A stretch of DNA of 64,000 bases from Pseudomonadota bacterium (GTDB lineage Bacteria; Pseudomonadota; Gammaproteobacteria; Steroidobacterales; MnTg04), in the NCBI GenBank assembly GCA_022560735.1, contig JADFSO010000005.1:47822-111821 (forward strand), in the 5' to 3' direction. A model generated the notes under the pieces. It was not told where the DNA came from, searched no databases, and saw only the letters and a program-made list of their open reading frames with translations. This document shows positions 3,474-61,641 of this stretch, one piece after another. Made by a program: the position numbers and the translations under genes. Every line of letters starts with the position of its first letter. Positions within the stretch are counted from its first letter, which is position 1.

Positions 3474-5573
3474 TCAAAGATCTCGCTGCGAAGAAATATC
3501 CAGCAAAGCCTTCTCAAAATCCCGGGTAAATTTTCCGGTATCGAACAACGCGCAGGTCTCTCGTTTGCGCGCCAGTTTCTTTTTCAGATCGGCCAGGTCT
3601 TCCATGTCCTGCCCGAGGTGAATCGCCATATCGCGATATTCCTGTTCCGAACTCATGATCAGTTCCGGTAATTCTGCCGCCGTCAAAATACTTCCGGCGA
3701 CCCGCGAGGCAAAAGTGTCCCCCGGCAAGGTCAGCACCGGGCAACCCATCCACAACGCATCGCTGGCTGTCGTGTGCGCGTTGTATGGCAACGTATCGAG
3801 AAACAGGTCCGCATGACGGTATGTCGCAAGATATTGTTTTTGTTCGGCTTTTTTTGCAAAAATCAGGCGTTCCGGCGCCAGCCCCAGGTCTTTTGCAGCA
3901 GACCGCAGCCGATCTTTCGCCGGCCACCTGGGATCGGGATCGAGCAGCCAAAGGACACTGTCCGGGACCGCGTCAAGAATTGCCACCCAGCGTGCAAAAG
4001 TCTGCCGGGTAATTTTCTGGCTCGCATTGAAACAACAATAGACCATGCCCTGGTCGGGCAATCCGAACTCGGAACGGCCCGGCGTGCCGGTTGCGGTTTC
4101 GCGATCGCGGTCGTTAACTTGATAGCTGTTCGGCAAGCGGATGATTTTTTCACTGTATGCGGATTCGCTGCCTGCGGGTATCACGAATTCATCGGCAACC
4201 AGGTAATCCATAAATTCCGCGCCCATCGTTCCCGGATAGCCGAGAAAACTGAGCTGCAACGGAGCCGGCCGGTAGGCGAAAACTTCGGACATTGCATCCA
4301 GCGTATAACCTTTCAGGTCGACCAGGATATCGACCCGGTCATCGCGGATTCTTTGAGCGATCTTCACCGGCGTCCAGCCACTGACATCGACAAACTCGTC
4401 GAAAGCATCCACAACCCGCCGGCGAATCGCGCTGTTGTCGTCCGGGCCGTTGGAATAAGCGAGCAGGCGGAATTTGGAACGGTCATGCGCCGCGAACAAT
4501 CCGGCCATCAGGTATGCAGTCGGGTGCTGGTAAAAGTCGGCGGAGACGTAGGCGAGTGTCAACCGTTGATCGTCCGGCGGATTCTTGCCGGATTTTTCCG
4601 CGGGTGGAAGTTTCTCAATCCGGGAAAATTGGCGTGCCCACAATTCAGCGCAATGTTTTTGCTGTTGCGCCGTGCTGTGCTCCAGGGTCAGGGAAAACGG
4701 GGTCAGTCCGCCGACGTCCTGCTCAAGCGCCTTGAAATACTGCTGCGACAATCTCTCGGCGCCATCCCAGTCGAATAGCGCCCGGCGCAGAAACAACGCA
4801 GCCGAGATCGCACCGCCATGCAGCGGCTCGATCTGCAGCGCGCGACCGTAGCAACTCAGTGCCTCACCGGCCATGCGTGCCTCATCCAGCAACAGGCCCA
4901 GGTTGTACCAGGTATCGGCATTATCCGGGGCGGTTTTCAAGGACGCCTGATACGTGCTGACCGCCTGCTGCCGATCGCCTTTCGCCGCCAGCACGGAACC
5001 GAGCTGCGCCAGGCAACCCGGGTGCCCGGGTGCAGCCTGCAGCGTATCGCGCACCGCCCGTTCCGCCGCTTCCAGATCGCCCTGCGCCTGCAAAACCATA
5101 CTCAGGTTGGTGCCTGCCTCAGGGTAGCCTGGCGAAGCCCGCAGAGCCTGCTCAAACTGCGCTTGCGCCTCGCCGAGGCGGCCTTGCAGGAAGCGCGCGC
5201 TACCGAGACCGTTTAGCGCAGCAGGCAATGCGGGTTCGATCGCCAGCGCGGCCTGGAAACGCTCCGCGGCCTCAACGGATCTTTGCATCGCGTTATACAC
5301 TGCACCGAGGTTGCACAATGCGTCCGCATCGCCCGGTGCAGAAGCCAACGCCTGAAGAATCAGTTTCTCGGCACGTTCGTGGCCACCTTGCTGATGATGA
5401 ACCAGGCCCAAAAAATGCAATGCGTGGAACTGGCCGGGAACGGCCCGCAATACCCTCTCGTAAATCGGTTTCGCCTCATCGAGCGCTCCCGCCTGGTGCA
5501 ACTGCAGCGCCTGATCGAGAAGCTGCTTAAGCGGCACTTCGCTGCCGTCATCAAGGCGTATGGTTTGATTCAT
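3474..5573 (-). CDS. TPR-repeat O-GlcNAc transferase-like glycosyltransferase (GT41/SPINDLY family)
   Basis: About 10 TPR-like repeats, then GT41 motifs: YVSADFYQHPTAYL, DILVDLKGYT, APLQLSFLGYPGT, DLFLDTLPYNAHTTASDALWMGCPV. Start moved to ATG 5573 (MNQTIRLDDG); the ORF-track extension to 5747 looks non-coding. Confidence 0.9.
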   Translation of the reverse strand: MNQTIRLDDGSEVPLKQLLDQALQLHQAGALDEAKPIYERVLRAVPGQFHALHFLGLVHHQQGGHERAEKLILQALASAPGDADALCNLGAVYNAMQRSVEAAERFQAALAIEPALPAALNGLGSARFLQGRLGEAQAQFEQALRASPGYPEAGTNLSMVLQAQGDLEAAERAVRDTLQAAPGHPGCLAQLGSVLAAKGDRQQAVSTYQASLKTAPDNADTWYNLGLLLDEARMAGEALSCYGRALQIEPLHGGAISAALFLRRALFDWDGAERLSQQYFKALEQDVGGLTPFSLTLEHSTAQQQKHCAELWARQFSRIEKLPPAEKSGKNPPDDQRLTLAYVSADFYQHPTAYLMAGLFAAHDRSKFRLLAYSNGPDDNSAIRRRVVDAFDEFVDVSGWTPVKIAQRIRDDRVDILVDLKGYTLDAMSEVFAYRPAPLQLSFLGYPGTMGAEFMDYLVADEFVIPAGSESAYSEKIIRLPNSYQVNDRDRETATGTPGRSEFGLPDQGMVYCCFNASQKITRQTFARWVAILDAVPDSVLWLLDPDPRWPAKDRLRSAAKDLGLAPERLIFAKKAEQKQYLATYRHADLFLDTLPYNAHTTASDALWMGCPVLTLPGDTFASRVAGSILTAAELPELIMSSEQEYRDMAIHLGQDMEDLADLKKKLARKRETCALFDTGKFTRDFEKALLDISSQRDL

Positions 5574-5667
5574 ATAGTGGGAGCAAAGATACTGGTAGCT
5601 GTTGTTCCGGTTTGATGTTAGCAGATGTCGACGCTGCGACCGGCAACGCCATCGAGAGGACAAAGAC

Positions 5668-5796
5668 ATGAGCCAAATCACCGCCACCTTGTCATCCGGG
5701 ACCGATGTTGAATTGTCGAACGGCCGCCACACCTGGAGAGCGGACATATTTGTTTTTTGCGAGCGGGCTAACTGGACAAGGTGTCAACAGGACTGA
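5668..5796 (+). pseudogene. 5' fragment of an OsmC/YhfA-like gene, truncated after codon 26
   Basis: RBS GAGAGGA, then MSQITATLSSGTDVELSNGRHTWRAD. OsmC-family proteins continue D-E-P...GG...GP-P; here the sequence switches at 5745/5746 into the intI 3' flank. Family call is from memory. Confidence 0.5.
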
Positions 5797-6178
5797 CGAT
5801 TGCGCCGGCACGGTTGCGGACGACATGAAGATAGATCTCCGTCGTCCGAATATCGCCGTGCCCGAGTAGCGACTGCACCAGCTTGATGTCGTAGCCGGTT
5901 TCGATCAACCGGGTGGCAAAGGAGTGCCTGAAGGTATGCGACCCAGCCCTCCGGTGGATGCCAGCCCGCCGAATCGCCGGTTTGAGCGCTTTTTGAAACG
6001 CCGAGTAATGCCGATGGTGGCGACGAAGTACACCGGTTTGCGGATCAACGCAGCGAAGTACCCAATGCAGATAGGTTTTCTCAGTCGCGTAACTCAGACC
6101 GCGATCGCGTATCGATTGCCTGAACAAGGAAACGAAGCGTTTGGATTTTCTTGGCAATGCCGGGCGTATATCATCCAT
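5768..6178 (-). pseudogene. intI: Integron integrase with large in-frame internal deletion (136 aa)
   Basis: IntI N-terminus (FRQSIRDRGLSYATEKTYLHWV) joined directly to the IntI-specific DPQTGVLRRHH motif and box II (HTFRHSFAT...YDIKLVQSLLGH...TTEIYLHV...SPVD). The central region with catalytic Arg/Lys is absent. Confidence 0.9.
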
Positions 6179-6189
6179 GATCCATCCAG

Positions 6190-6291
6190 CGGTAACGCCG
6201 CACCAAGCGCAGAGGCACTTAAAGCTAGCGAAGTTTCTGCAAAACGACCGGCCCAGCCCAAACGCGGCAAACCGCTGGTACGGCGCCAGAC
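6190..6291 (+). other. Degenerate attC-like site next to the intI start
   Basis: GGTAAC-GCCGC-ACCAAGCG ... CGCTGGT-ACGGC-GCCAGAC. Arms pair with one extra base in the left L box; the right core is GCCAGAC instead of GTTAGAC. Confidence 0.5.
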
Positions 6292-6303
6292 TGGGACAAC
6301 CGC

Positions 6304-6558
6304 TTAGCCGATATTCTTTAACTCTTCACGTACAACTCTGCGCAAAATCTGTTCCAGGGGTTCACGTGTCTGCACCATGTATTCGTGAAGTGCCTGGTTG
6401 ATTAATGTCTGATAGTTGCCGCCACCCGCATCGTCAACCTGCTTTTTGAACCATTCGATCACTTCTTCATCCAGGCGAATCGTGATGCGTTTCTTTCCAG
6501 TAGGCGCCGAAATCACTGGCCCTCGTTTGCCCTTGCTGAAATCGTAGTCTTTCCTCAT
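6304..6558 (-). CDS. brnA: BrnA-family antitoxin (type II TA)
   Basis: MRKDYDFSKGKRG...KKRITIRLDEEVIEWFK...GNYQTLINQALHEYM matches the BrnA RHH pattern. TAATG overlap with the upstream toxin. Confidence 0.85.
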   Translation of the reverse strand: MRKDYDFSKGKRGPVISAPTGKKRITIRLDEEVIEWFKKQVDDAGGGNYQTLINQALHEYMVQTREPLEQILRRVVREELKNIG

Positions 6559-6845
6559 TAAATTGCTCCGTAGCATTTACCTTCGCCCTTTGATGCTTTA
6601 CGGGAAGATATAATGCGGACGACATCGTCACGGTGGGTAAATACAGTAACTAAAACCCGTCCCATTGCGTCCATACCCAATGAAACGAATCGAGTTTCAT
6701 CCTCTGAATCCAGATCAGCAATGGTAAGTGCCAGCTCGTCCTCCAAGGCAATCACGGCATCCGCGAACCCGACACCATGCTTTATTGCGTTGGCCTTGGT
6801 TTTGACCAAATCCCATTCATATTCAACTGAATTTACTGTATGCAC
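6558..6845 (-). CDS. brnT: BrnT-family toxin (DUF497); true start uncertain
   Basis: EYEWDLVKTKANAIKHGVGFADA...ETRFVSLG...VFTHRDDVVRIISSRKA is the BrnT consensus. The family start aligns with GTT at 6827. Confidence 0.85.
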   Translation of the reverse strand: MHTVNSVEYEWDLVKTKANAIKHGVGFADAVIALEDELALTIADLDSEDETRFVSLGMDAMGRVLVTVFTHRDDVVRIISSRKASKGEGKCYGAI

Positions 6846-6864
6846 AACTGTACACCAATGTCAA
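6835..6864 (-). promoter_or_regulatory. Sigma70-like promoter of the first brnTA module
   Basis: Minus strand: TTGACA (6864-6859), 18 nt, TACAGT (6840-6835). An imperfect TGTA...TACA dyad overlaps the spacer. Confidence 0.55.
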
Positions 6865-7173
6865 GCTAATCGACCCCACCCTGGCTACGGGTCAACGCCA
6901 TCGTGACCGGCTTTCGCCTGCGGCCTCAGCGTTTTCCTGCTGTCTGATTTATATGGCACCGGGTTTTTTTACACCAACCGCATATCAGGCCAATAACGCC
7001 AGATTCATGATTTACAAAGCTTTTCTATCTCTTTTGGGAATTTGCTATCATATATATAGCGCGACATACAAAGCCCTTGATCGAACGCCACAAAGGTGGG
7101 TTTTTTGTTATCGCATAAATGGTTGGTGTTGAGAGGCGTTCACCAGCCGTAGACAATAAATTACAAACGCATA

Positions 7174-7220
7174 CATAGAATGATCATCAAAACCAACAAC
7201 CATAGAATTAACTGTTAGAT
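7174..7220 (+). other. Probable attI site
   Basis: AT-rich tract with no attC stem, ending TTAACT-GTTAGAT (core 7214-7220). CATAGAAT direct repeats at 7174 and 7201. GTTAGAT is the exact complement of the ATCTAAC that ends cassette 1. Confidence 0.6.
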
Positions 7221-7223
7221 TCC

Positions 7224-7766
7224 ATGCGCCGTTGGTTCTTACACAGCTTTTCAGTAGTCATCGTCCTGATTACATTGATCGCCGCTTGGCGCATTATGTC
7301 GACGACATTTGACCTGGCTGTTATTTACGCAACTGATGAAGACGATGGGCCGCTGCAAGAAATTTACCTTTGGCGAATCCGGAATCTGGAATCTTGTCCC
7401 TCCCTGGACTCATCTTCGCCTGAATCGCCAACTGGCTATGTGGTGAATGCGTACAATATGCCAAACACGGATAATGCAAAGGTATTCGAAGTCTTAGCGA
7501 TATTGATTGACATTGGTTGCGATATTAATGCACGAAATAGTTTTGGGGGAGTTCCTTTACACAACCCAGTTATGGCGGGAGAAATACAGATGGTGCGTTT
7601 CTTATTGCGCAACGGTGCGGATCCTTTCCTGCGGTTCGAAGGTAACGAGCGGAACTCGCATCTTTCCGGTCTCAACTCTTTTCAACTTGCCCAGCTTACG
7701 CAAGAGAAAATGGGCCGGAACACGGAGGTAATTGGTTTGTTGAGAGAGTATGAAGATGGAATCTAA
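7224..7766 (+). CDS. Cassette 1: membrane-anchored ankyrin-repeat protein
   Basis: N-terminal hydrophobic helix and ankyrin consensus (GCDINARNSFGGVPLH...VRFLLRNGADP). Low GC. Stop codon lies within ATCTAAC. Confidence 0.8.
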   Translation: MRRWFLHSFSVVIVLITLIAAWRIMSTTFDLAVIYATDEDDGPLQEIYLWRIRNLESCPSLDSSSPESPTGYVVNAYNMPNTDNAKVFEVLAILIDIGCDINARNSFGGVPLHNPVMAGEIQMVRFLLRNGADPFLRFEGNERNSHLSGLNSFQLAQLTQEKMGRNTEVIGLLREYEDGI

Positions 7767-7795
7767 CCAGTGACTGTGGTTCCAAGTCAACCCGA

Positions 7796-8920
<1,125 letters not shown>

Positions 8921-9062
8921 GTTTTGCTACAAAATCAACCATACAAGCGCATGCAGTTCGCGCCTGCGGCGCCGGACCGGCCTGCGGCCGGCCGCTGATG
9001 CAGGTCGTTAGAAACCTGATCAAGGTATAGAGATAGCGCCCGAGGAACCACCACCGGGTTAC

Positions 9063-9098
9063 TTGCAATCACTCCAAAAAAGGTATATTTTCTATACC
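9063..9098 (+). promoter_or_regulatory. Promoter and operator of cassette 2 TA
   Basis: TTGCAA-N17-TATTTT, overlapped by the inverted repeat GGTATA-N5-TATACC (9082-9098). Confidence 0.55.
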
Positions 9099-9101
9099 AT
9101 T

Positions 9102-9362
9102 ATGGGATTCGAGTTCGATCCTCAGAAAAGTGACCGAAACCTCGCTAATCACGGCATCGATTTTGTTGAAGCTCAGCAACTGTGGAACGACTCGAATTTA
9201 TTGGAGATCCCAGCGCGGACCGAGGATGAACCAAGGTTTATCGTAATTGGCCAGATCAATGCTAAACATTGGTCAGCTGTAATTACCTATCGCGGCGATG
9301 ACATTCGCATCATTTCCGTGCGGCGATCCCGAGAGGAAGAGGTAATCTGGTATGAAAGCTAA
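9102..9362 (+). CDS. brnT: Cassette 2: BrnT-family toxin
   Basis: MGFEFDPQKSDRNLANHGIDFVEAQQLW...EPRFIVIG...RIISVRRSR. Start moved to ATG 9102. Confidence 0.85.
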   Translation: MGFEFDPQKSDRNLANHGIDFVEAQQLWNDSNLLEIPARTEDEPRFIVIGQINAKHWSAVITYRGDDIRIISVRRSREEEVIWYES

Positions 9363-9621
9363 GAAATTTGATAGCGATTTTGACCAAGGCAAAGATGTAA
9401 CCGGTGCCTTGAATCTTTCTAAAGCTCGGCGTCCGAAACAGCAACAAAAACGTGTGAATGTCGATTTTCCAACCTGGATGGTCGAGTCACTTGATAAGGA
9501 AGCACGGCGGTTAGGTGTAACTCGACAATCAATCATTAAAGTGTGGCTTGCGGAAAGATTGGAGCAGTCGGCTTCTAACCAGTCGGTGCAGACCGACAGC
9601 CAGCAAGCTGGCCGCCGCTGA
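9352..9621 (+). CDS. brnA: Cassette 2: CopG/BrnA-type antitoxin
   Basis: MKAKKFDSDFDQGKDV...KRVNVDFPTWMVESLDKEARRLGVTRQSIIKVWLAERL (RHH fold). Overlaps the toxin and reads into attC2. Confidence 0.8.
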   Translation: MKAKKFDSDFDQGKDVTGALNLSKARRPKQQQKRVNVDFPTWMVESLDKEARRLGVTRQSIIKVWLAERLEQSASNQSVQTDSQQAGRR

Positions 9622-9635
9622 CCTAAGCGTTATGA
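9573..9635 (+). other. attC2 (intact, 63 bp)
   Basis: TTCTAAC-CAGTC-GGTGCAG...CTGACC-TAAGC-GTTATGA. TTCTAAC is the exact complement of the cassette start GTTAGAA (9007). Confidence 0.9.
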
Positions 9636-9675
9636 GCCTTAGAACATTAGCGCCAGCGTGCTATTCTTGATTGTG

Positions 9676-9693
9676 GTACCATAATGGTACTAT
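9676..9693 (+). promoter_or_regulatory. hicAB operator palindrome and extended -10
   Basis: GTACCAT-A-ATGGTAC (9676-9690) overlaps TGgTACTAT (9685-9693). The ATG follows 6 nt later, consistent with a leaderless mRNA. Confidence 0.65.
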
Positions 9694-9699
9694 TGCAGC

Positions 9700-9903
9700 A
9701 TGCCACCAAAGATTCGCGAATTGATTCGAGACCTGGAGTCCGCAGGCTTCGCTAATCGAGGTGGTAAAGGTGGTCACCGCAACTTTCGACATTCGGAAGG
9801 GGTCAGTATCACACTCAGTGGTAAGCCTGGTCAGGATGCGAAGCGGTACCAGATTAGAGATGTTAAACGAGCTATAGAGCTGATTGATGATGAAAAAGCG
9901 TAA
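9700..9903 (+). CDS. hicA: Cassette 3: HicA-family toxin
   Basis: 67 aa: RELIRDLESAGF...GKGGHRNFRH (GSH-like motif). Confidence 0.85.
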   Translation: MPPKIRELIRDLESAGFANRGGKGGHRNFRHSEGVSITLSGKPGQDAKRYQIRDVKRAIELIDDEKA

Positions 9904-10228
9904 TCAATATTTGAAAGTGGTCGAGTGGTCAGAAGAAGATCAGTGTTTCATTGGACGAGTACCAGGCCTGGCATTGGGCGGTGTTCATGGGAAAAACGAA
10001 GGCAAAGTTTATGAAAGACTCGGTACCCTCGTGGATGAGTGGATCGCTATATACGAGGCAGATGGGGCTTCGTTGCCACCGGCTACAGCGGGAAGAAGAT
10101 ACTCGGGTCGCTTCAATATTCGGCTAGGCGAAACACTTCATGAGCGTTTGGCTATAGAATCCTTGAAGGTAAAAGAAAGCCTGAACTCATATTGCGTGAA
10201 GGTACTAAGAAATGAGGTTGGCTTATAA
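9890..10228 (+). CDS. hicB: Cassette 3: HicB-family antitoxin
   Basis: VEWSEEDQCFIGRVPGL...HG...YSGRFNIRLGETLHERLAIES: HicB domain plus RHH. Start at 9887 or 9890. Confidence 0.85.
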   Translation: MKKRNQYLKVVEWSEEDQCFIGRVPGLALGGVHGKNEGKVYERLGTLVDEWIAIYEADGASLPPATAGRRYSGRFNIRLGETLHERLAIESLKVKESLNSYCVKVLRNEVGL

Positions 10229-10263
10229 CCAGTCGATGAAGCGGGCCAACCTAGCCGTCACAG
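10223..10263 (+). other. attC3, left half only
   Basis: TTATAAC-CAGTC-GATGAAG..., with no matching L'/GTT arm before the next ATG at 10287. Confidence 0.65.
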
Positions 10264-10286
10264 GTAATTAAAAGCGAGCGCATCCC

Positions 10287-11609
10287 ATGAGTGAATCAGG
10301 AAGAGGAGTCAGCCGTCGTACGGTTTTGCGCGGTCTGGCCTCCGGCGCAGTAGTGGCAATCGCTGGTGCTGTAAAAGCCCGGACGGTCGGTGAATTACCC
10401 AAACCGCCTACTGACGTCGCCCCGCAAACACTATCACGTGATGAGGATTACTGGAGTGAAGTGGCCAGTTATTATGATGCCACCGTCGGGACGATCAATC
10501 TCGAACATGGCTACTGGGGCAAGATGGCTCGTCCTGTACAGGAGTTTTATCTGTCAGCTACCAGGATGGTAAACAAACAAAACTCTTACTATGCACGCAG
10601 GGACTACGACGCAGATCACCAGTCAAGTGTGCAACGTGTTGCTCGCGCACTGGGGGCGGAAGAAAGTGAGATTGTACTTACCCGAAACGCAACCGAGGCC
10701 ATTCATAATTTAATTCGTCAGTATCGTGGGCTGAGATCCGGCGATGCCGTACTTTATGCCGATGCAGATTATCCCAGTTTCAAGACAACCATGGCGTGGC
10801 TGGAAAAGGTACATGATGTGAATGCTGTTGAAATCGAGCTGCCAGCCCGAGCCAACCAGCAAGAGCTACTGAAAAAATATATCAGTGCGTTCGATGCAAA
10901 CCGCAATCTGAAGTTAATCCTGGTCACTCATGTGAGCAATCAACACGGCATGGTAATACCGCTGAAAGCGATAGCAGCGGAAGCGCGTATTCGTGGTATC
11001 GATGTGATTTGCGATAACGCACAGTCATGGGGGTTAATGGACTATAGAATCAGTGACCTCGATGTGGACTGGGCCGGGTTCAATTTGCATAAATGGATCG
11101 GTGCACCGCTGGGGGTCGGCGCACTTTACATGCGGCGCGGGTCATTACAGAAAATTGCCCCTTACCCGGGCGAGGTTGACTTGAATAACACCGATGCCGG
11201 TGCCCGCGTCCATACCGCTACTTCCAACTTTGCTGCTATTCTTGCCATACCTGCTGCACTGGATTTCCATGAATTAATCGGTGGCGCAAACAAGGAAGCT
11301 CGACTTAACTATCTTAGAAGCTTGTGGACCAGCGAAGCAGAGGCAATGCCCAATATTGAAGTACTCGGTGGCACTGATGAAGCATCCCGCACGGGCATGG
11401 CGTCATTGCGTCTGGTTGCTAAGAAAACAATTGAAGATGCAAAGAAACTTCAACAAAGGCTGGAAAACGATTTCGGAATCTTTACCGTAGTGAGAAAAGG
11501 ATTGGCAAGTGGAGGCTGTGTAAGGATTACACCGCAGATATTCAGTACTCCCGGACAAATAGGCCGATTCGTGGATGCACTGCGAGTACTTAACAAATTG
11601 AGGCGTTAG
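10287..11609 (+). CDS. Cassette 4: Tat-exported class V aminotransferase (isopenicillin-N epimerase / cysteine desulfurase-like)
   Basis: Twin-arginine signal SRRTVL; PLP motifs DNAQS and NLHKWIGAPLG; NLEHGYWG, TRNATEA. Confidence 0.85.
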   Translation: MSESGRGVSRRTVLRGLASGAVVAIAGAVKARTVGELPKPPTDVAPQTLSRDEDYWSEVASYYDATVGTINLEHGYWGKMARPVQEFYLSATRMVNKQNSYYARRDYDADHQSSVQRVARALGAEESEIVLTRNATEAIHNLIRQYRGLRSGDAVLYADADYPSFKTTMAWLEKVHDVNAVEIELPARANQQELLKKYISAFDANRNLKLILVTHVSNQHGMVIPLKAIAAEARIRGIDVICDNAQSWGLMDYRISDLDVDWAGFNLHKWIGAPLGVGALYMRRGSLQKIAPYPGEVDLNNTDAGARVHTATSNFAAILAIPAALDFHELIGGANKEARLNYLRSLWTSEAEAMPNIEVLGGTDEASRTGMASLRLVAKKTIEDAKKLQQRLENDFGIFTVVRKGLASGGCVRITPQIFSTPGQIGRFVDALRVLNKLRR

Positions 11610-11611
11610 GC
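11588..11611 (+). other. Collapsed attC (24 bp)
   Basis: ACTTAAC-AAATT-GAGGC-GTTAGGC: both cores and spacers present, L boxes and loop absent. Confidence 0.65.
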
Positions 11612-11627
11612 GTAAACCGAGATACCA

Positions 11628-11972
11628 GTGGAATTCGACAATTCAATAATTCTGGCAGTGTTTCTGGGTATGTTGCTGCTGCTGGTGATCCTGTTCCTCG
11701 GCGTAATGATTGCAGGCGCCCTTGCGCCTAGACCGTCTCGCGGCGCACCGCTAATTGCGTCCGAAGACGGTCATTTTGAAGTCGCGGGGAAACGTATCTC
11801 TTGCTCGCATTGTGGCGGCTCTGAATTCAGCGTAAATCAAATTCTTTTGAACACCTGGCTTCTTTCACTGTTAAGGATCGATTGGTTGGACGCAAGCGCC
11901 AGTGTTTTGACATGTCTAAAATGCGGGCAACTTACGTGGTTCAATCAAGACTCGGCAAAAGGTGACGAGTGA
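11628..11972 (+). CDS. Cassette 5: membrane-anchored zinc-ribbon protein
   Basis: GTG start, N-terminal TM helix, CSHC...CLKC. Confidence 0.7.
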   Translation: MEFDNSIILAVFLGMLLLLVILFLGVMIAGALAPRPSRGAPLIASEDGHFEVAGKRISCSHCGGSEFSVNQILLNTWLLSLLRIDWLDASASVLTCLKCGQLTWFNQDSAKGDE

Positions 11973-12339
11973 ATGCCATCTTGAGTACTTCGATAACGCG
12001 ATTTTTCTCTCTGGGGCTGCGATGCTCGTCAGACCCGACGCTGTTACCGGTTTCTTTCGCGAAAATTCGGGCTCACTTGGACTCCATGTCTTAGCGGTAG
12101 TGGTCAGACTGATTTTGGGTGCAGCACTCATTGGGTATGCAACGGATTCCAAATATCCAGTCGCCTTGCAGATCTTCGGTTGGCTTTCGGTGGGTGGTGC
12201 AATTATTTTGGGAGGAATGGGCCGGGCTCGATTCAAGGCCGTGATTAGCTGAGCGCTCGGTTTCGCCTCATCTCTCATGCGTTTTGCTGGCTTGTTGGCC
12301 GCTGCGCTTGGAGGCTTTCTGATTTATGCAGTAGCTTGA
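11962..12339 (+). pseudogene. Cassette 6: small multi-TM protein, probably 5'-truncated, with internal TGA at 12250-12252
   Basis: The hydrophobic ORF continues in frame past TGA (KAVIS*ALGFASSLMRFAGLLAAALGGFLIYAVA*), consistent with TGG>TGA. Confidence 0.6.
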
Positions 12340-12349
12340 TTCGACAGTG

Positions 12350-12373
12350 CTGCAACAAAGCCAAGCGTTGGGC
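12350..12373 (+). other. Collapsed attC (24 bp)
   Basis: CTGCAAC-AAAGC-CAAGC-GTTGGGC; same geometry as 11588-11611. Confidence 0.6.
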
Positions 12374-12403
12374 ATAAATATTTAAACCGTGGAGTAGTCA
12401 GAA

Positions 12404-12685
12404 ATGAAAGCCATCTGGAAAGACACAGTAATAGCACAATCCGATGAAACAGTAGTCGTTGAAGGAAACCATTATTTCCCGGCAGAATCGGTTAGCATGG
12501 AGTTTCTAAAAGACAGCGACACAATATCGGGATGCCCGTGGAAGGGAACCGCCAACTACTACAACATAGATGTCGACGGTGAAACCAACCCGGACGCAGC
12601 TTGGTACTATCCGGACCCCAAGGACGCCGCGAGCGAAATCCGCGGTCGAATTGCCTTCTGGAAAGGAGTGCAGATCATCGAGTGA
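12404..12685 (+). CDS. Cassette 7: DUF427 family protein
   Basis: MKAIWKDTVIAQSDETVVVEGNHYFP...SGCPWKGTANYY...AAWYYPDPK...RIAFWKGV. GGAG RBS. Confidence 0.85.
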   Translation: MKAIWKDTVIAQSDETVVVEGNHYFPAESVSMEFLKDSDTISGCPWKGTANYYNIDVDGETNPDAAWYYPDPKDAASEIRGRIAFWKGVQIIE

Positions 12686-12701
12686 TGACTTCCGGATTTA
12701 T

Positions 12702-12761
12702 GCTTGACCCGTGCAAGCAAGCGAACCTCCTTTCGGTCGACTGCGGTTGCTGGCGTCAGGC
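12702..12761 (+). other. Degenerate attC with TGAC/GTCA cores (60 bp)
   Basis: GCTTGAC-CCGT-GCAA...TTGC-TGGC-GTCAGGC, located 16 nt after the DUF427 stop. Confidence 0.45.
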
Positions 12762-12837
12762 ATAGAACGGCATGCCGATTTGCTGGCTCAGACCATCGAT
12801 ATGTATGACAATATCTCAAACCGCTTAGGAGAAAATC

Positions 12838-13156
12838 ATGGGGACGATTCCCGCCAAACAATACCTGAAGATAACCGAGCGCTTTCCGGATTATATGAGC
12901 GCTGTCGAGTCACTTGGAAAAACTGCAAAGAAGGAAGGCCCGATCGATGAGAAGACCGCCCCACCTGGTTCAAATAGCGGCGGCGGCGGCGATTCGCTCT
13001 GAAGGAGCTGTGCACAGTCATACAAGAAGAGCCATTGACGCTGGTGCACAGGCTGATGAAATTTATCACGCCATCATACTTATTACGAGTACCATTGCGT
13101 TTCCCACTGTTGTGGCGGCATTAAGCTGGGTAGACGATGTGATTGAAGGTTCCTGA
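12838..13156 (+). pseudogene. Carboxymuconolactone decarboxylase (CMD/AhpD-like) gene with +1 frameshift
   Basis: AGGAG RBS, then MGTIPAKQY...EGPIDEKTA. An extra C in the run at 12959-12962 shifts the frame to HLVQIAAAAAIRSEGAVHSHTRRAIDAG...FPTVVAALSWV. Confidence 0.75.
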
Positions 13157-13310
13157 TATCAAGTACGTAACACATTATTGCGCCTTCCCATTTGCAGACC
13201 GATAATTGAGGTGGTTTCGTTGCGAACCACGGCGCTGCCGGGAAAGCTGCAGCGAATCCGGCCGGCGCTCAATTTCAAACAGCCATTGCATTGGCAGGAG
13301 TTTGAGAATC

Positions 13311-13916
13311 ATGACGTTGCCGATCCGCTCTGCCCGATGGAAGATCTTGCTGGCCATGCTGGTTCTGGCGACTAGCCTGAGCGCCTGCGCTTCCATTCCA
13401 ACCGGTGCGCATTACGACCATGCATCGGATTTCAGTGGCTACCGGTCTTATTCCTGGATCGCCGCCAATCCGCTGATTCTGGGTAGCGGTGAACAATCCT
13501 CGATCAGCCCGCTGACCCAGAGCTATATCACCCGGGCGATTGGCGCTGAACTCGAGCGCAAGGATTATGCCTTCGCCGATTCGCCGGCTGAGGCTGACTT
13601 CATCGTATGTTATACGCTGGGCACACGGGCGACGATCGATGCCTACTCATACCCGGCCACACATCAGGGAGACTGGGGATGGCATCTGTATGGACGCCAT
13701 TACTATACGAGTCAAGTGCATCATCGGTCTTATACCGAGGGAACATTGAGTATCGATATTTTTGACGGAAAATCCAGACAACCCGTTTGGCACGGGTGGG
13801 CCGGCAAGACGATAAGCGATGCCAACCAGCAAAAACCATTGCCGATCATCAAGAAAGCGGTCGCCCAAATATTTGAGCAATTCCCGCCGGGTCAAGACGC
13901 GTTCGATAGTAAATAA
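13311..13916 (+). CDS. DUF4136-like lipoprotein
   Basis: RBS CAGGAG; lipobox LSAC; DFSGYRSYSW; YTEGTLSIDIFDGKSRQPVWHG. Confidence 0.8.
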   Translation: MTLPIRSARWKILLAMLVLATSLSACASIPTGAHYDHASDFSGYRSYSWIAANPLILGSGEQSSISPLTQSYITRAIGAELERKDYAFADSPAEADFIVCYTLGTRATIDAYSYPATHQGDWGWHLYGRHYYTSQVHHRSYTEGTLSIDIFDGKSRQPVWHGWAGKTISDANQQKPLPIIKKAVAQIFEQFPPGQDAFDSK

Positions 13917-13952
13917 TCCTGCCCGAAATAGCTGACCGCCGGCATCAGCCAC

Positions 13953-15653
13953 TCAATATCCCGCCGCGTGCCCATCCTTCCTGGTCTCGGACGCACCGAT
14001 ATAAGTGCCGTTTTTCTCATCGCGGCGGATCGCCTGGTAGCCGCCAAAGCCACCGACCGACAGGCTCACATGGTGACCCCTTTGCCTTAGCTCTGCGATG
14101 ACCTGATCGTCAATTCCCGATTCCAGCAACAGCACGCCGCCATCGTGCATTTGCTCGCCGGTCGGCTGGCTGCTGCCTTCGTGGCGCAGGCGCGGCGCGT
14201 CGCCCGCCTCCTGCAGGTTCATACCGAAATCGATCAGGTTTACGAGGATCTGCACATGCGCCTGTGGCTGCATCGCCCCACCCATGATGCCAAAACTCAG
14301 CCAGGGCTTACCGTCTTTGGTGACAAATGCGGGAATGATGGTGTGGAAAGGGCGTTTGCCAGGCTCGAAGCTGTTGGCATGGCCCTCCTCGAGACTGAAC
14401 AACTCACCGCGGTCTTGCAGGTTGAAGCCCAGACCGGGCGGCACCATGCCCGAACCCATACCGCGATAATTGCTCTGGATCAGCGAGACCATGTTGCCGT
14501 ATTTGTCGGCCGTCGTGAGGTAAATGGTATCGCCGTTTTTCAGCTTTGGGTCCCCCGGCGGATATGCCTTCGCGGCTTTTTCCATCGACAGAAGTTCGCG
14601 CCGCCGGTCTGCGTATGCTTTCGATATCATTTCCTTGACCGGCACATCGGCGAAATCCGGGTCGGCATAGAACTTCGCCCGGTCTTCGAAAGCCAGTTTC
14701 TTGGCTTCGGTCAGCACGTGCAGGTAATCTGCGCTGCCAAATCCCATGGCGGCAAGATCGAAAGGCTCCAGGATGTTCAGCATCTGCAAAGCCGCGATAC
14801 CCTGGCCGTTCGGTGGCAGCTCCCAGACATCGTAACCGCGATAACTCGTCGAGACCGGCTCAACCCATTCGGAACGGTGGCTTAGCAAATCCTCGTAGCT
14901 GAGGAAGCCGCCATTGGCCTGCACGTGGTCGGCGATGACATGCGCCATCTCGCCCTTGTAAAACACATCACGGCCGCCCTCGGCAATTTTTTCCAGGGTA
15001 TTTGCCAATCGCGGGTTCTTGAAAATCTCGCCCTTGGCGGGCGCCCGGCCATTGGGTAAATAGGTTTCGCGGAACGCGGGATACTCGCCGAGTATGGTCT
15101 CGTATTTTTTCCACAGCCAGGCGATGTATTCGCTGACCGGGAAGCCTTCGCGGGCGTAATCGATCGCGGGTTTGAGTATTTCCTTCATCGGCAGCGAACC
15201 AAAACGCTGATGCATCTCGAACCAGCCATCGACCGTGCCCGGCACGCTGACCGGCAATGCTCCACGCGGTGGGATCGACTCGTAGCCGTTGTCGATAAAC
15301 CATTCCCGCGTCAGCGAGCGCGGCGAGCGCCCGCTGGCATTCAGGCCATACAGTTTTTTCGTTTTGGCATCCCAGATTATCGCGAACAAGTCGCCGCCGA
15401 TGCCGTTACCGGTCGGCTCCATCAGGCCGAGCGCGGCGTTCGCCGCGATGGCGGCGTCGATTGCGTTACCACCGGACTTGAGAATATCGATCGCTATCTG
15501 AGTCGCGAGCGGCTGGCTGGTCGCCGCCATGCCATGCGTCGCGATGACCTCGGAGCGGCTGGCAAAGCTGTCACCTGATTCTCGGTCGTATCCATATCCC
15601 ATCGGGGTCACCATAAACAACATCAGTCCGCTCAAAATCCACTGGCTTCGCAT
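13953..15653 (-). CDS. ggt: Gamma-glutamyltransferase
   Basis: Signal peptide; GGNAIDAAIA, EPTGNGIGGD, autocleavage GDTIY, PGKRPFHTIIP, GGAMQPQ. Confidence 0.95.
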   Translation of the reverse strand: MRSQWILSGLMLFMVTPMGYGYDRESGDSFASRSEVIATHGMAATSQPLATQIAIDILKSGGNAIDAAIAANAALGLMEPTGNGIGGDLFAIIWDAKTKKLYGLNASGRSPRSLTREWFIDNGYESIPPRGALPVSVPGTVDGWFEMHQRFGSLPMKEILKPAIDYAREGFPVSEYIAWLWKKYETILGEYPAFRETYLPNGRAPAKGEIFKNPRLANTLEKIAEGGRDVFYKGEMAHVIADHVQANGGFLSYEDLLSHRSEWVEPVSTSYRGYDVWELPPNGQGIAALQMLNILEPFDLAAMGFGSADYLHVLTEAKKLAFEDRAKFYADPDFADVPVKEMISKAYADRRRELLSMEKAAKAYPPGDPKLKNGDTIYLTTADKYGNMVSLIQSNYRGMGSGMVPPGLGFNLQDRGELFSLEEGHANSFEPGKRPFHTIIPAFVTKDGKPWLSFGIMGGAMQPQAHVQILVNLIDFGMNLQEAGDAPRLRHEGSSQPTGEQMHDGGVLLLESGIDDQVIAELRQRGHHVSLSVGGFGGYQAIRRDEKNGTYIGASETRKDGHAAGY

Positions 15654-60213: not shown

Positions 60214-61641
60214 TTATGCGGCATCCGTGTCTGGCAACAACTCGCCCAGCGCCAGTACTTTTGCTTTCATCACGGCCTGGTTTGCCCGCACCTGTTCGAG
60301 GATCGCCTGGAAATCGGGGTTGTTTTTGAGCTTATCGAAAAATGGCGTCTCGAGATCGTGAGGAACCGAGTAGCCATTGTCCGCCGCCTGTTGCAGCGTA
60401 TACAAAGCGCGGATTCGTTCACCGGCAAGCGCATAATACGCGGCGCGCAACTGCTGAGCATCCAGGACATAATAGCGCTGCTCGATCGCATTGCCGATCT
60501 GGATACCGACTTTTGCGAGCAGATCGCCGGCCAGCGCAGTCTGATCGAGGCGCAACTGGCGATAGCCTTGCGCCGCCCATGCGTCCGCGTCGTTCGGGTC
60601 CAGTTCGAGCGCCTTTTCGATCAGCGGCCCGCTCAGCCGCAACGACTCGGTAATCGACAATGAGCCATACTCGTCCATATCCAGGTATGTACTGCCCAGC
60701 AATGCCATCGCCGCCACATAGCCCGGTTCCCGCTCGATCGCCCTTTGCAGATAATCCGCGGCACGCTCCAGCGCCCCGGCGTCGTTCTCGTTGAGTTCGC
60801 CTCGCGCCCTTAGAAACAGATCATAGGCCGCGGGATCGATCGCGACCCTTTCCGGGGCAATCTCTTCATCGAGCAACTCGATACGCAAGGCCTTGACCAC
60901 GGCCGCCGCGATCTCGTCCTGCAACGCGAAAATATCGGTCAGTTCCCGGTCATAGGTCTCCGACCACAGGTGAAAACCATCGGCCACGTTGATCAGCTGA
61001 GTCGTTATGCGCACCCGGTTGCCGGCGCGGCGCACGCTGCCTTCGAGTATATGACCCACCCCCAGTTCCTCGCCGATTTTCTGGATGTTCTGGTCGCTGC
61101 CCTTGTAGGCGAAAGACGAAGTACGCGCCGCCACCCGCAGTGAATCCACCTTGGCCAGCAAGTTGAGCAGTTCTTCCGCCAGGCCATCGGAAAAATAGTC
61201 GGTCTCCGGGTCGGAGCTCATGTTGACCAGCGGCAACACGGCGATCGAGTGGGTGCCGTCCTGGGCCGGTACGGGTACCGCCGAATCGGCCGCGTCAGGG
61301 TCTTTGAAATAAATACTATAGACAAGCGCAAGCACCAGCGAGCCGATGATGACAAAATCGATCCTGCGCCCGGTTTGGCTGGTAATCGATTGGCTGCGAT
61401 CGACGTCTTTTTCCTTCTTCAGCCCTTCGGGCGTCATCTCGAAAGCCCAGGCCAGGATCAGCGAAATCGGAAAACCCAGGATCAGCAACAGAAAAATCAG
61501 TTTGGATGACCACTCGGGCAAATTGAGTATCGGCACGATCAGATCGGCAACCTGGAGAATCAGCCAGGCGGCGACCAGGTAGACGAAGGCGACGCGCAAC
61601 ACGTTGCGCCGCCTGAGTTCCGTGAAAAAGCTATCGCCCAT
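60214..61641 (-). CDS. Membrane protein with TolB-like/adenylate-cyclase-associated domain and TPRs
   Basis: ELRRRNVLRVA N-terminus with TM helices; IAVLPLVNMSSDPETDYFSDGLAEELLNLL; LEGSVRRAGNRVRITTQLI. No catalytic domain seen. Confidence 0.8.
   Translation of the reverse strand: MGDSFFTELRRRNVLRVAFVYLVAAWLILQVADLIVPILNLPEWSSKLIFLLLILGFPISLILAWAFEMTPEGLKKEKDVDRSQSITSQTGRRIDFVIIGSLVLALVYSIYFKDPDAADSAVPVPAQDGTHSIAVLPLVNMSSDPETDYFSDGLAEELLNLLAKVDSLRVAARTSSFAYKGSDQNIQKIGEELGVGHILEGSVRRAGNRVRITTQLINVADGFHLWSETYDRELTDIFALQDEIAAAVVKALRIELLDEEIAPERVAIDPAAYDLFLRARGELNENDAGALERAADYLQRAIEREPGYVAAMALLGSTYLDMDEYGSLSITESLRLSGPLIEKALELDPNDADAWAAQGYRQLRLDQTALAGDLLAKVGIQIGNAIEQRYYVLDAQQLRAAYYALAGERIRALYTLQQAADNGYSVPHDLETPFFDKLKNNPDFQAILEQVRANQAVMKAKVLALGELLPDTDAA

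Follow-up and report, generated by a model that had tools for sequence, protein, structure and literature searches.

Two 24-bp motifs in a decaying chromosomal integron: probably worn cassette junctions with a coincidental shared spacing

Background

How mobile cassettes turn into permanent chromosomal genes is a real question of integron biology, and a clear natural example of this transition is offered by a 64,000-nt stretch of DNA from a Pseudomonadota bacterium of the Gammaproteobacteria (contig JADFSO010000005.1; the whole stretch is hereafter called the window, and all coordinates are window positions). An integron array sits in it between a GT41/TPR gene and ggt. A preliminary description had singled out two 24-bp motifs in this array, ACTTAACAAATTGAGGCGTTAGGC at 11588-11611 (site 1) and CTGCAACAAAGCCAAGCGTTGGGC at 12350-12373 (site 2), as attC sites collapsed to one and the same geometry, in which the R'' and R' boxes and both 5-nt spacers would remain while the L boxes and the loop are gone. 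The shared endpoints were taken to suggest a defined mechanism, for example cutting of the folded hairpin at its L boxes, that fixes cassettes in the chromosome. Are the two motifs products of one such process, or do they only look alike? The account reached here, to which we assign a probability of about 0.68 as a whole, is that they are worn cassette junctions in a decaying chromosomal integron and that the spacing they share is coincidental. The value of the locus lies in the combination of a variable proximal and a fixed distal part in one array, where comparison with dozens of full-length relatives traced the loss of attC at one junction base for base; assigning short AAC/GTT motifs to R boxes requires full-length homologues.

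The memb-DUF427 junction

Site 2 is intergenic, 10 nt past the stop of a pseudogene for a small membrane protein (memb) and 31 nt ahead of the ATG (12404) of a DUF427 gene. When metagenomes were scanned with aligned memb homologues, 80 loci came up (retrieved loci are labelled L), 76 of them with a readable stop. The protein belongs to a widespread integron-cassette family with 249 relatives in metagenomes, many of which are flanked by attCs. In 34 of the 76 homologues the stop is followed by 12-16 nt, by GCAA-CATAAC and then by a full attC that ends in GTTRRRY 55-100 nt further on, the CATAAC-type R'' lying mostly 19 nt after the first base of the stop (16-22 nt in nearly all). A covariance model built from ten attCs of the 74-nt family of the array (CM R1), on which the attCs that went into it score 21-76 bits, gave matches that begin at ACATAAC in L138, L126 and L136. 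Moreover, attCs were found upstream of memb in L085, L093, L104 and L113, and on both sides of it in, for example, L104, L113 and L138.

In a gap-free alignment with 13 of these full-length relatives, the window reads tga-ttcgacagtgct-GCAA-CAAAGC-CAAGC-G|TTGGGC. Because the R'' triplet of the family falls at 12359-12361, where the window has AGC and not AAC, and because one 5-nt spacer is left before R', the true geometry of site 2 is R''-N5-R'. The AAC counted in the preliminary description is part of the conserved GCAAC flank; its context ranks about 390th of 1781 on a position weight matrix (PWM) for R'', and CM R1 gave no match at site 2. The site thus has an R' core and no R'' of the functional kind. 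Relatives at this junction read CAAC..GTCAAGC.

Homologues of DUF427 (84-87% identical amino acids) occur with different neighbours in L057/L059/L060, L061 and L062/L063, and in four contexts other than the window a GTTRGGY core lies 27-29 nt (30 nt in the window) 5' of the start codon and is followed by a homologous 5' untranslated region (...GGAGTARYCRGAAATG). The core reads GTTGGGC in the window, GTTCGGT in L057, GTTAGGT in L061 and GTTAGGC in L062, and in L057/L059/L060 and L061 it closes the full attC of the preceding cassette (in L061 with 25 bits on the covariance model and a fold z-score of about -4). Judged from these sequence comparisons, 12367-12373 is the true R' and 12368 the first base of the DUF427 cassette. 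Both memb and DUF427 are separate cassettes elsewhere, each with its own attC, as is characteristic of the partners in a fused cassette, and among lineages carrying the two genes together, none showed a cassette exchange at site 2.

The AT5-orf114 junction

Site 1 is also at a gene boundary, as had been described, but it is not intergenic: it is made up of the closing six codons of AT5, a class-V aminotransferase gene, plus its stop codon (CGT TAG), ahead of the small gene orf114. The CTT AAC at 11589-11594 are Leu and Asn codons. The closest non-cassette orthologue (L054, 75% identical, in an ordinary chromosomal context) ends CTT AAC TGA, right after the Asn, and is exceeded by the AT5 of the window by four codons and the stop (AAA TTG AGG CGT TAG). 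The three closest homologues outside the clade likewise have C-termini LN (P0004), ING (P0005) and LNS (P0006).

The sequence that follows the Asn codon resembles the 3' end of an attC. On a PWM of attC 3' ends, the GTT of site 1 (context ATTGAGGC-GTT-AGGC) ranks between first and third of the 1781 GTTs in the window, and when the matrix was trained without the window sites and the near-identical site of L059 it came first, above both intact attCs of the window. The 11-mer ATTGAGGCGTT is the 3' end of the attC of an AHSA1 cassette in L057-L060, and the 3'-arm fragment ATTGAGGC is identical to that of a real attC, as would be expected of the remnant in a fused cassette. The gene after site 1 also differs between lineages, being orf114 in some, another small open reading frame (ORF) in L031 and L056, and changed again in L055. 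Taken as sequence, the GTTAGGC of site 1 is probably an R' with a stub of the 3' arm. CM R1 gave the site 9.4 bits (E 0.3-0.7), with a hairpin energy of about 0 kcal/mol, and relatives read CTTAAG..ATTAG or CTTAAC..ATTAG here.

The suggestion that the same cassettes should be found elsewhere with full attCs was borne out at site 2, where DUF427 and memb allowed the endpoints to be mapped; for site 1, the 34 AT5 loci compared lacked attCs and orf114 was not found in other arrays. Homologues of orf114, of the two more distal genes CMD and DUF4136 and of the small ORF were absent from the fetched loci outside this chromosomal locus.

Spacing and structure of the motifs

Both 24-mers are present with exactly 10 nt between AAC and GTT, as the preliminary description states. 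The motif YAAC-N10-GTTR occurs four times in the window compared to 2.18 +/- 1.52 in shuffled sequence, 18 of 100 shuffles reaching four, and the remaining two are situated around rplQ/rpsD, among ribosomal protein genes. All spacings from 0 to 30 have 0-5 copies each in the window. Across 69 independent array-bearing loci (L057-L063 and L078-L154), 10 copies of the N10 motif were observed where 16.4 +/- 4.9 were expected, so the proposed scan against shuffles revealed no N10 peak in either set. In the same loci YAAC-N25-GTTR was over-represented (29 versus 16.2 +/- 3.8), which may stem from homologous sequence common to them.

Junction lengths proved to be uneven. In the window and its close relatives they are N5, N10, N41 (orf114-memb in L064/L065) and N46 (the attC after DUF427), while in L059 they are N18 or the core is missing altogether. 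L052 keeps neither motif, with AAG..ATT at site 1 and AAC..GTC at site 2. Between the cores there are 10 nt at site 1 and 5 nt at site 2, with fold energies from 0 to -2.7 kcal/mol, and neither site has the L'' and L' boxes and the imperfect hairpin of 50-150 nt that distinguish a functional attC. The fold z-scores of candidate fossil attCs in L056, L059, L065 and the window (12702-12761) were not significant; structure alone cannot decide. Since one AAC is an Asn codon (site 1) and the other belongs to a conserved GCAAC flank (site 2), the N10 spacing common to both is best regarded as coincidental.

A variable left part and a fixed right part

Among metagenome contigs 99.0-99.9% identical to the window, cassette content differs only left of 10257. 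In relatives whose AT5 is 88-95% identical (L052/L053, L055, L056, L031), different cassettes reach exactly to G|TCAYAGGTA (10257), where homology with the window sets in and continues rightwards; left of this point the window has HicAB, L052 a class-C beta-lactamase-like gene and L056 yet another cassette. Going rightwards, relatives last differ in cassette content at the attC of the HicAB cassette. To the right of it, AT5 and orf114 as well as memb and DUF427 remain neighbours in lineages 89-100% identical, in agreement with the earlier claim that these cassettes are fixed.

The genes right of 10257 are old cassettes too, since a decayed attC follows DUF427 and DUF427 is a cassette in other arrays. 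This attC, which was found when the covariance model was run without filters, has orthologues behind DUF427 in L052, L057-L060 and L062. In metagenome-assembled genomes 86% identical at ggt-pepQ, a cassette array reaches ggt, with DUF427 among other genes. An early reading, based on the sequences of relatives and on L054, took both sites for mere chance motifs to the right of a "terminal" attC (10223-10263); it was overturned by the decayed attC after DUF427 and by the DUF427 cassettes elsewhere.

The fixed part contains three inactivating lesions (11997-12001, 12250-12252 and ~12960), in genes that are intact in L052 or in L064/L065. The deletion between CGCGA repeats took the orf114-memb junction, which reads TAAC-N41-GTTGCAA in relatives, together with the start of memb.

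The core at which the variable part ends is unusual. The R' GTCAYAG, with GTC and not GTT, lies at 10257-10263 in the window, at 3643-3649 in L052 and at 83-89 in L056, and three lineages join different cassettes at the same G|TC, suggesting that a non-canonical core was recombined. Cores of the GAC/GTC type were also seen in the DUF427 attC (12702-12761) and in L056. The cassette that takes the array position of HicAB in L052 (2266-3579) encodes a 437-aa serine hydrolase of the class-C beta-lactamase/D-aminopeptidase family, with scores far under the NCBIfam cut-offs. The stretch from AT5 to ggt is patchy among relatives (L031 313-487, L055 2372-2489 and L056 1440-1819, against window 11615-13880): L031 has solely a 65-aa ORF resembling the C-terminal domain of L7/L12, L055 about 117 bp, and L056 that same small ORF, fused to the 3' end of memb.

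Proposed history of the junctions

The locus is a sedentary chromosomal integron with a truncated integrase, carried by a gammaproteobacterium of marine sediment that is uncultured. Its proximal cassettes, up to 10257, still have recognisable attCs and vary in the population, while the distal units AT5, orf114, memb, DUF427, CMD and DUF4136 would be old cassettes that are now fixed. The R' core appears to be the real part of both 24-mers, marking the G|TT crossover that opens the downstream cassette, as shown for DUF427 and presumed for orf114. At both junctions nearly all of the upstream attC would have been lost, with differing endpoints: site 2 would keep a point-mutated R'' (ACATAAC to ACAAAGC) and one 5-nt spacer, and site 1 about 10 nt of the 3' arm. 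The original stop of AT5 would have been deleted at site 1, so that the ORF runs into R' and ends at the TAG within GTTAGGC. The 24-mers would be relics without activity of their own, with the effect that neighbouring cassettes could no longer be excised separately.

Replication slippage across the hairpin, or a deletion there at microhomologies, most likely removed the attCs, in an array that was no longer maintained. We infer this cause from the uneven endpoints, the lack of an N10 excess, the CGCGA deletion, nonsense mutation and frameshift in the same block, and the literature on fused cassettes. The AHSA1 attC of L057-L060 has AATTGA in both arms, and a deletion between the copies would yield AAC-G-AATTGA-GGC-GTT, that is, the spacing of site 1; as this attC belongs to another cassette, the route serves as a model only.

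There is perhaps a slim chance that hairpins in inactive arrays collapse recurrently, and by a preferred route, to R''-spacer-R' or arm-R' stubs, with which two cases are compatible. The route may be slippage between arm sequences resembling direct repeats (AATTGA in AHSA1-type attCs, the CAAC/CAAG spacers in memb-type attCs). If true, recurrent collapse would offer a general way for cassettes to become domesticated as parts of operons.

Alternative explanations

Several observations weigh against worn junctions with a coincidental spacing, most of them at site 1. No full-length attC of AT5 was found at 34 orthologous loci, and the endpoints at site 1 derive from the attC of an unrelated cassette; nor were AT5 (34 loci) and orf114 (fetched arrays) seen as independent cassettes. 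CTTAAC and GTTAGG are complementary at six positions, one of these being a G-T pair; with a rank of 6-14 among 1781 for the AAC context on the R'' PWM as well, a true R'' overlapping the last AT5 codons is possible. L052/L053, L055, L031 and L056 have ATT (ATTAG) in place of GTT, and the G of site 1 could be a late chance substitution. Lineages of the orf114 type and of the small-ORF type furthermore share 9-11 nt past the putative crossover point (TTAGGCGTA.A), where 6 nt would be expected had IntI made the exchange. At site 2, the 5 nt that were kept may come from the left spacer or from the right one.

The points at site 1 bear most directly on the possibility that it is no attC relic at all, that AT5 and orf114 form one unit and that the 24-mer is merely the coding 3' end of AT5, its GTT having arisen by an A>G change (CAT>CGT) in the lineage of the window. 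The ATTAG of the relatives, the coding AAC, the insignificant covariance score with a hairpin near 0 kcal/mol and the homology that extends 9-11 nt beyond G|TT would all fit. We nevertheless consider it unlikely, as ATTGAGGC-GTT-AGGC came first of 1781 on the independently trained PWM, a proven R' (that of the DUF427 attC in L052) has likewise decayed to ATTAGGC, the four codons beyond the stop of L054 need an origin, and gene content switches at this very site. The originally proposed model, that both attCs collapsed to an identical R''-5-5-R' by a defined process (for example, the integrase cutting at the L boxes) and so fixed the cassettes, would explain why AAC-N10-GTT stands at both cassette junctions, why the right spacers GAGGC and CAAGC resemble the AAGGC, TAAGC and CAAGC of real sites (the TAAGC of attC2 at 9573-9635 was confirmed) and why the CM R1 alignment spans the whole of site 1 apart from a deleted interior. 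Normal IntI chemistry, however, is known to cleave only the R box. The claim that both R boxes and both spacers remain fails at site 2, where the AAC lies 5 nt upstream of the R'' triplet in the family alignment and one spacer is left, as well as at site 1, where the AAC is an ancestral Asn codon. With N10 unenriched in the window and in the 69 arrays, other junctions collapsed to other lengths, and the motif not retained in L052, the step from equal endpoints to a defined mechanism runs counter to the 34 full-length memb relatives and to the orthologue L054, and we regard it as highly improbable. What survives of the shortened attCs is that both are relics at cassette junctions, by homology of R' at site 2 and, probably, by the PWM at site 1; the common 24-bp geometry does not, given the N5 of the former and the codon of the latter.

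It is also conceivable that the junctions arose without any later deletion, by IntI-mediated insertion at a secondary site, for instance of DUF427 into the memb attC at the spacer/L'' boundary, in which case no full attC ever stood beside the downstream cassette. The site 2 junction indeed falls exactly on the spacer|L'' boundary in the family alignment, a boundary that is presumably unlike the consensus for secondary sites. L056 moreover has a long decayed memb attC (GCCAC GTATC CAGCG CCGTAC...) whose left part matches window 12341-12367 and whose right part resembles 13163-13225, as if DUF427-CMD had been inserted between them. L056 is a single 1.8-kb contig, though, the similarity of the right part is weak and not significant by BLAST, and the full attC expected after CMD was not seen in the covariance model search. 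Illegitimate IntI events have been proposed as a route to fused cassettes (PMC8876359), but on balance insertion of this kind seems quite unlikely for the two junctions, and worn cassette junctions remain our preferred explanation.

Other features of the array

The features of the array are collected in Table 1.

Table 1 Features of the integron array in window positions
Feature	Position	Strand	Details
Truncated intI	5768-6178	minus	136-aa ORF; Pfam Phage_integrase; only the C-terminal ~92 residues of IntI left
Split attC, 74-nt family	7762-9013	+	Left part TCTAACCAG at 7762-7770; R' GTTAGAA at 9007-9013; CM R1 58.8 bits at 8939-9013
IS110-family element	~7771-8946	transposase (7796-8740) minus	Interrupts attC of the 74-nt family
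attC2 (intact)	9573-9635	+	R'' TTCTAAC, right spacer TAAGC, R' GTTATGA; CM R1 47.8 bits
Short HicAB-cassette attC	10223-10263	+	R' GTCACAG at 10257-10263; CM R1 21.3 bits
AT5	10287-11609	+	Class-V aminotransferase/cysteine-desulfurase-like; 440 aa; Pfam Aminotran_5
Site 1, AT5-orf114 junction	11588-11611	+	Probable R' core GTTAGGC at 11605-11611; ~10 nt of attC 3' arm (AAATTGAGGC)
orf114	11628-11972	+	Small protein; putative former cassette; no Pfam or NCBIfam match
Deletion scar	11997-12001	+	91-92 bp lost between CGCGA direct repeats, from alignment with L064/L065 (98% identical)
memb pseudogene	12002-12339	+	5'-truncated small membrane protein; in-frame TGA at 12250-12252 (TGG in L052)
Site 2, memb-DUF427 junction	12350-12373	+	GCAAC flank 12352-12356; decayed R'' ACAAAGC 12355-12361; spacer CAAGC 12362-12366; R' G|TTGGGC 12367-12373
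DUF427 gene	12404-12685	+	Former cassette; Pfam PF04248
Decayed full-length DUF427 attC	12702-12761	+	60 nt; R'' GCTTGAC, R' GTCAGGC; CM R1 16.9 bits, E ~1e-3
CMD pseudogene	12838-13156	+	Carboxymuconolactone-decarboxylase-like; 1-nt insertion frameshift at ~12960, compared with intact 105-aa gene of L052
DUF4136 lipoprotein gene	13311-13916	+	Pfam; last unit ahead of convergent ggt

The intI fragment, which corresponds to the C-terminal quarter of an integron integrase, has its best NCBIfam match in TIGR02249 (integron integrase; model positions 224-315, E 3e-36, under the full-length cut-off) and is also present in the population contigs L035, L045 and L051. Its right-hand neighbours are toxin-antitoxin and other small genes, with attCs of a conserved 74-nt family as their boundaries. 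An intI gene beside an array of attC-bounded cassettes in one orientation is the mark of a chromosomal integron, and the window has both, intI as a truncated fragment. In L049, a different cassette stands left of attC2, up to G|TTATGA; an apparent tandem duplication in orf114 in the same sequence turned out to be an N-filled scaffold gap. No clear attI core was found by eye in 6180-6300, a scan of 10100-14000 for promoters and terminators gave nothing above chance near either site, and no Rfam family matched across 5000-14500. Towards ggt, L056 suggested a candidate attC or R' before DUF4136 (13165-13225, with GTTGCGA at 13219-13225), which ranks poorly on the PWM (804 of 1781); homology with L031 and L055 resumes at ~13874-13920. 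In the only run labelled "metatranscriptomic", a whole-genome amplification (WGA) library, 9000-14500 was evenly covered as one contig. At 61004, GCTGAGTCGTTATGC comes near real attC 3' ends on the matrix, yet lies within a gene far from the integron; chance by itself can thus reach ~7.5 bits.

The insertion sequence (IS) of the IS110 family, annotated as an "RNA-guided transposase" (NF033542), lies in an attC between TCTAACCAG and CGCATGCAG; the same attC is seen whole in L045 at 6054-6129. An identical IS end (ATAACCAG|TGACTGTGGTTCCAAGTCAA) breaks an unrelated attC of the memb family at the same position in L085 and L087 (~1960-2000), which come from other metagenomes. Because the same end interrupts two unrelated attCs at the same position, the element is of the attC-targeting kind known as IS1111-attC. 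Its non-coding end (8741-8946) is a candidate place for a bridge RNA matching attC.

Comparison with known systems

Fused cassettes formed by loss of attC are known, and slippage at the stem-loop or illegitimate IntI events have been proposed as their origin (PMC8876359 section 2.4.4, PMC4670013). In blaGES-1/aacA4, the attC is cut to 6 bp of the 1L core and is no longer used by the integrase (PMC4670013, PMC8876359), and the preliminary description was right that shortened attCs that fuse cassettes were already on record for class 1 integrons (PMC8876359, PMC4670013). The junctions described here resemble the class 1 examples blaGES-1/aacA4, blaOXA-10/aadA1 and aadA1/blaOXA-9 (in Tn1331) in that the upstream attC is partly or wholly lost, both genes are kept and the pair would no longer be separable by the integrase. 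Like blaGES-1/aacA4, site 2 keeps R'' (1L), and in addition a spacer. They differ in that the window holds an environmental chromosomal array with a dead integrase and genes other than resistance genes, two of the fused units being pseudogenes.

The locus also shares features with degenerate sedentary chromosomal integrons and with clusters of attC sites without an integrase, reportedly termed CALINs by Cury et al. in 2016: the integrase is truncated or absent, the place in the chromosome is fixed, and both attCs and cassette genes undergo progressive decay. As in sedentary chromosomal integrons, the proximal attCs in the array of the window and in those of close relatives strongly resemble one another (the 74-nt repeat family). 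Unlike a CALIN, the window retains an intI fragment and is thus an inactivated integron, with distal junctions that have decayed past detection by attC models. Insertion of cassettes at secondary sites, reportedly studied by Recchia, Stokes and Hall in the 1990s, likewise results in a fixed cassette with a GTT-type core only on its 5' side and no attC there. Such insertion leaves the 3' attC of the inserted cassette intact and needs no deletion, whereas for the window an origin by deletion seems likelier. Compared with these systems, the 24-mers are real but ordinary relics, fused cassettes of a known kind that call for no new mechanism.

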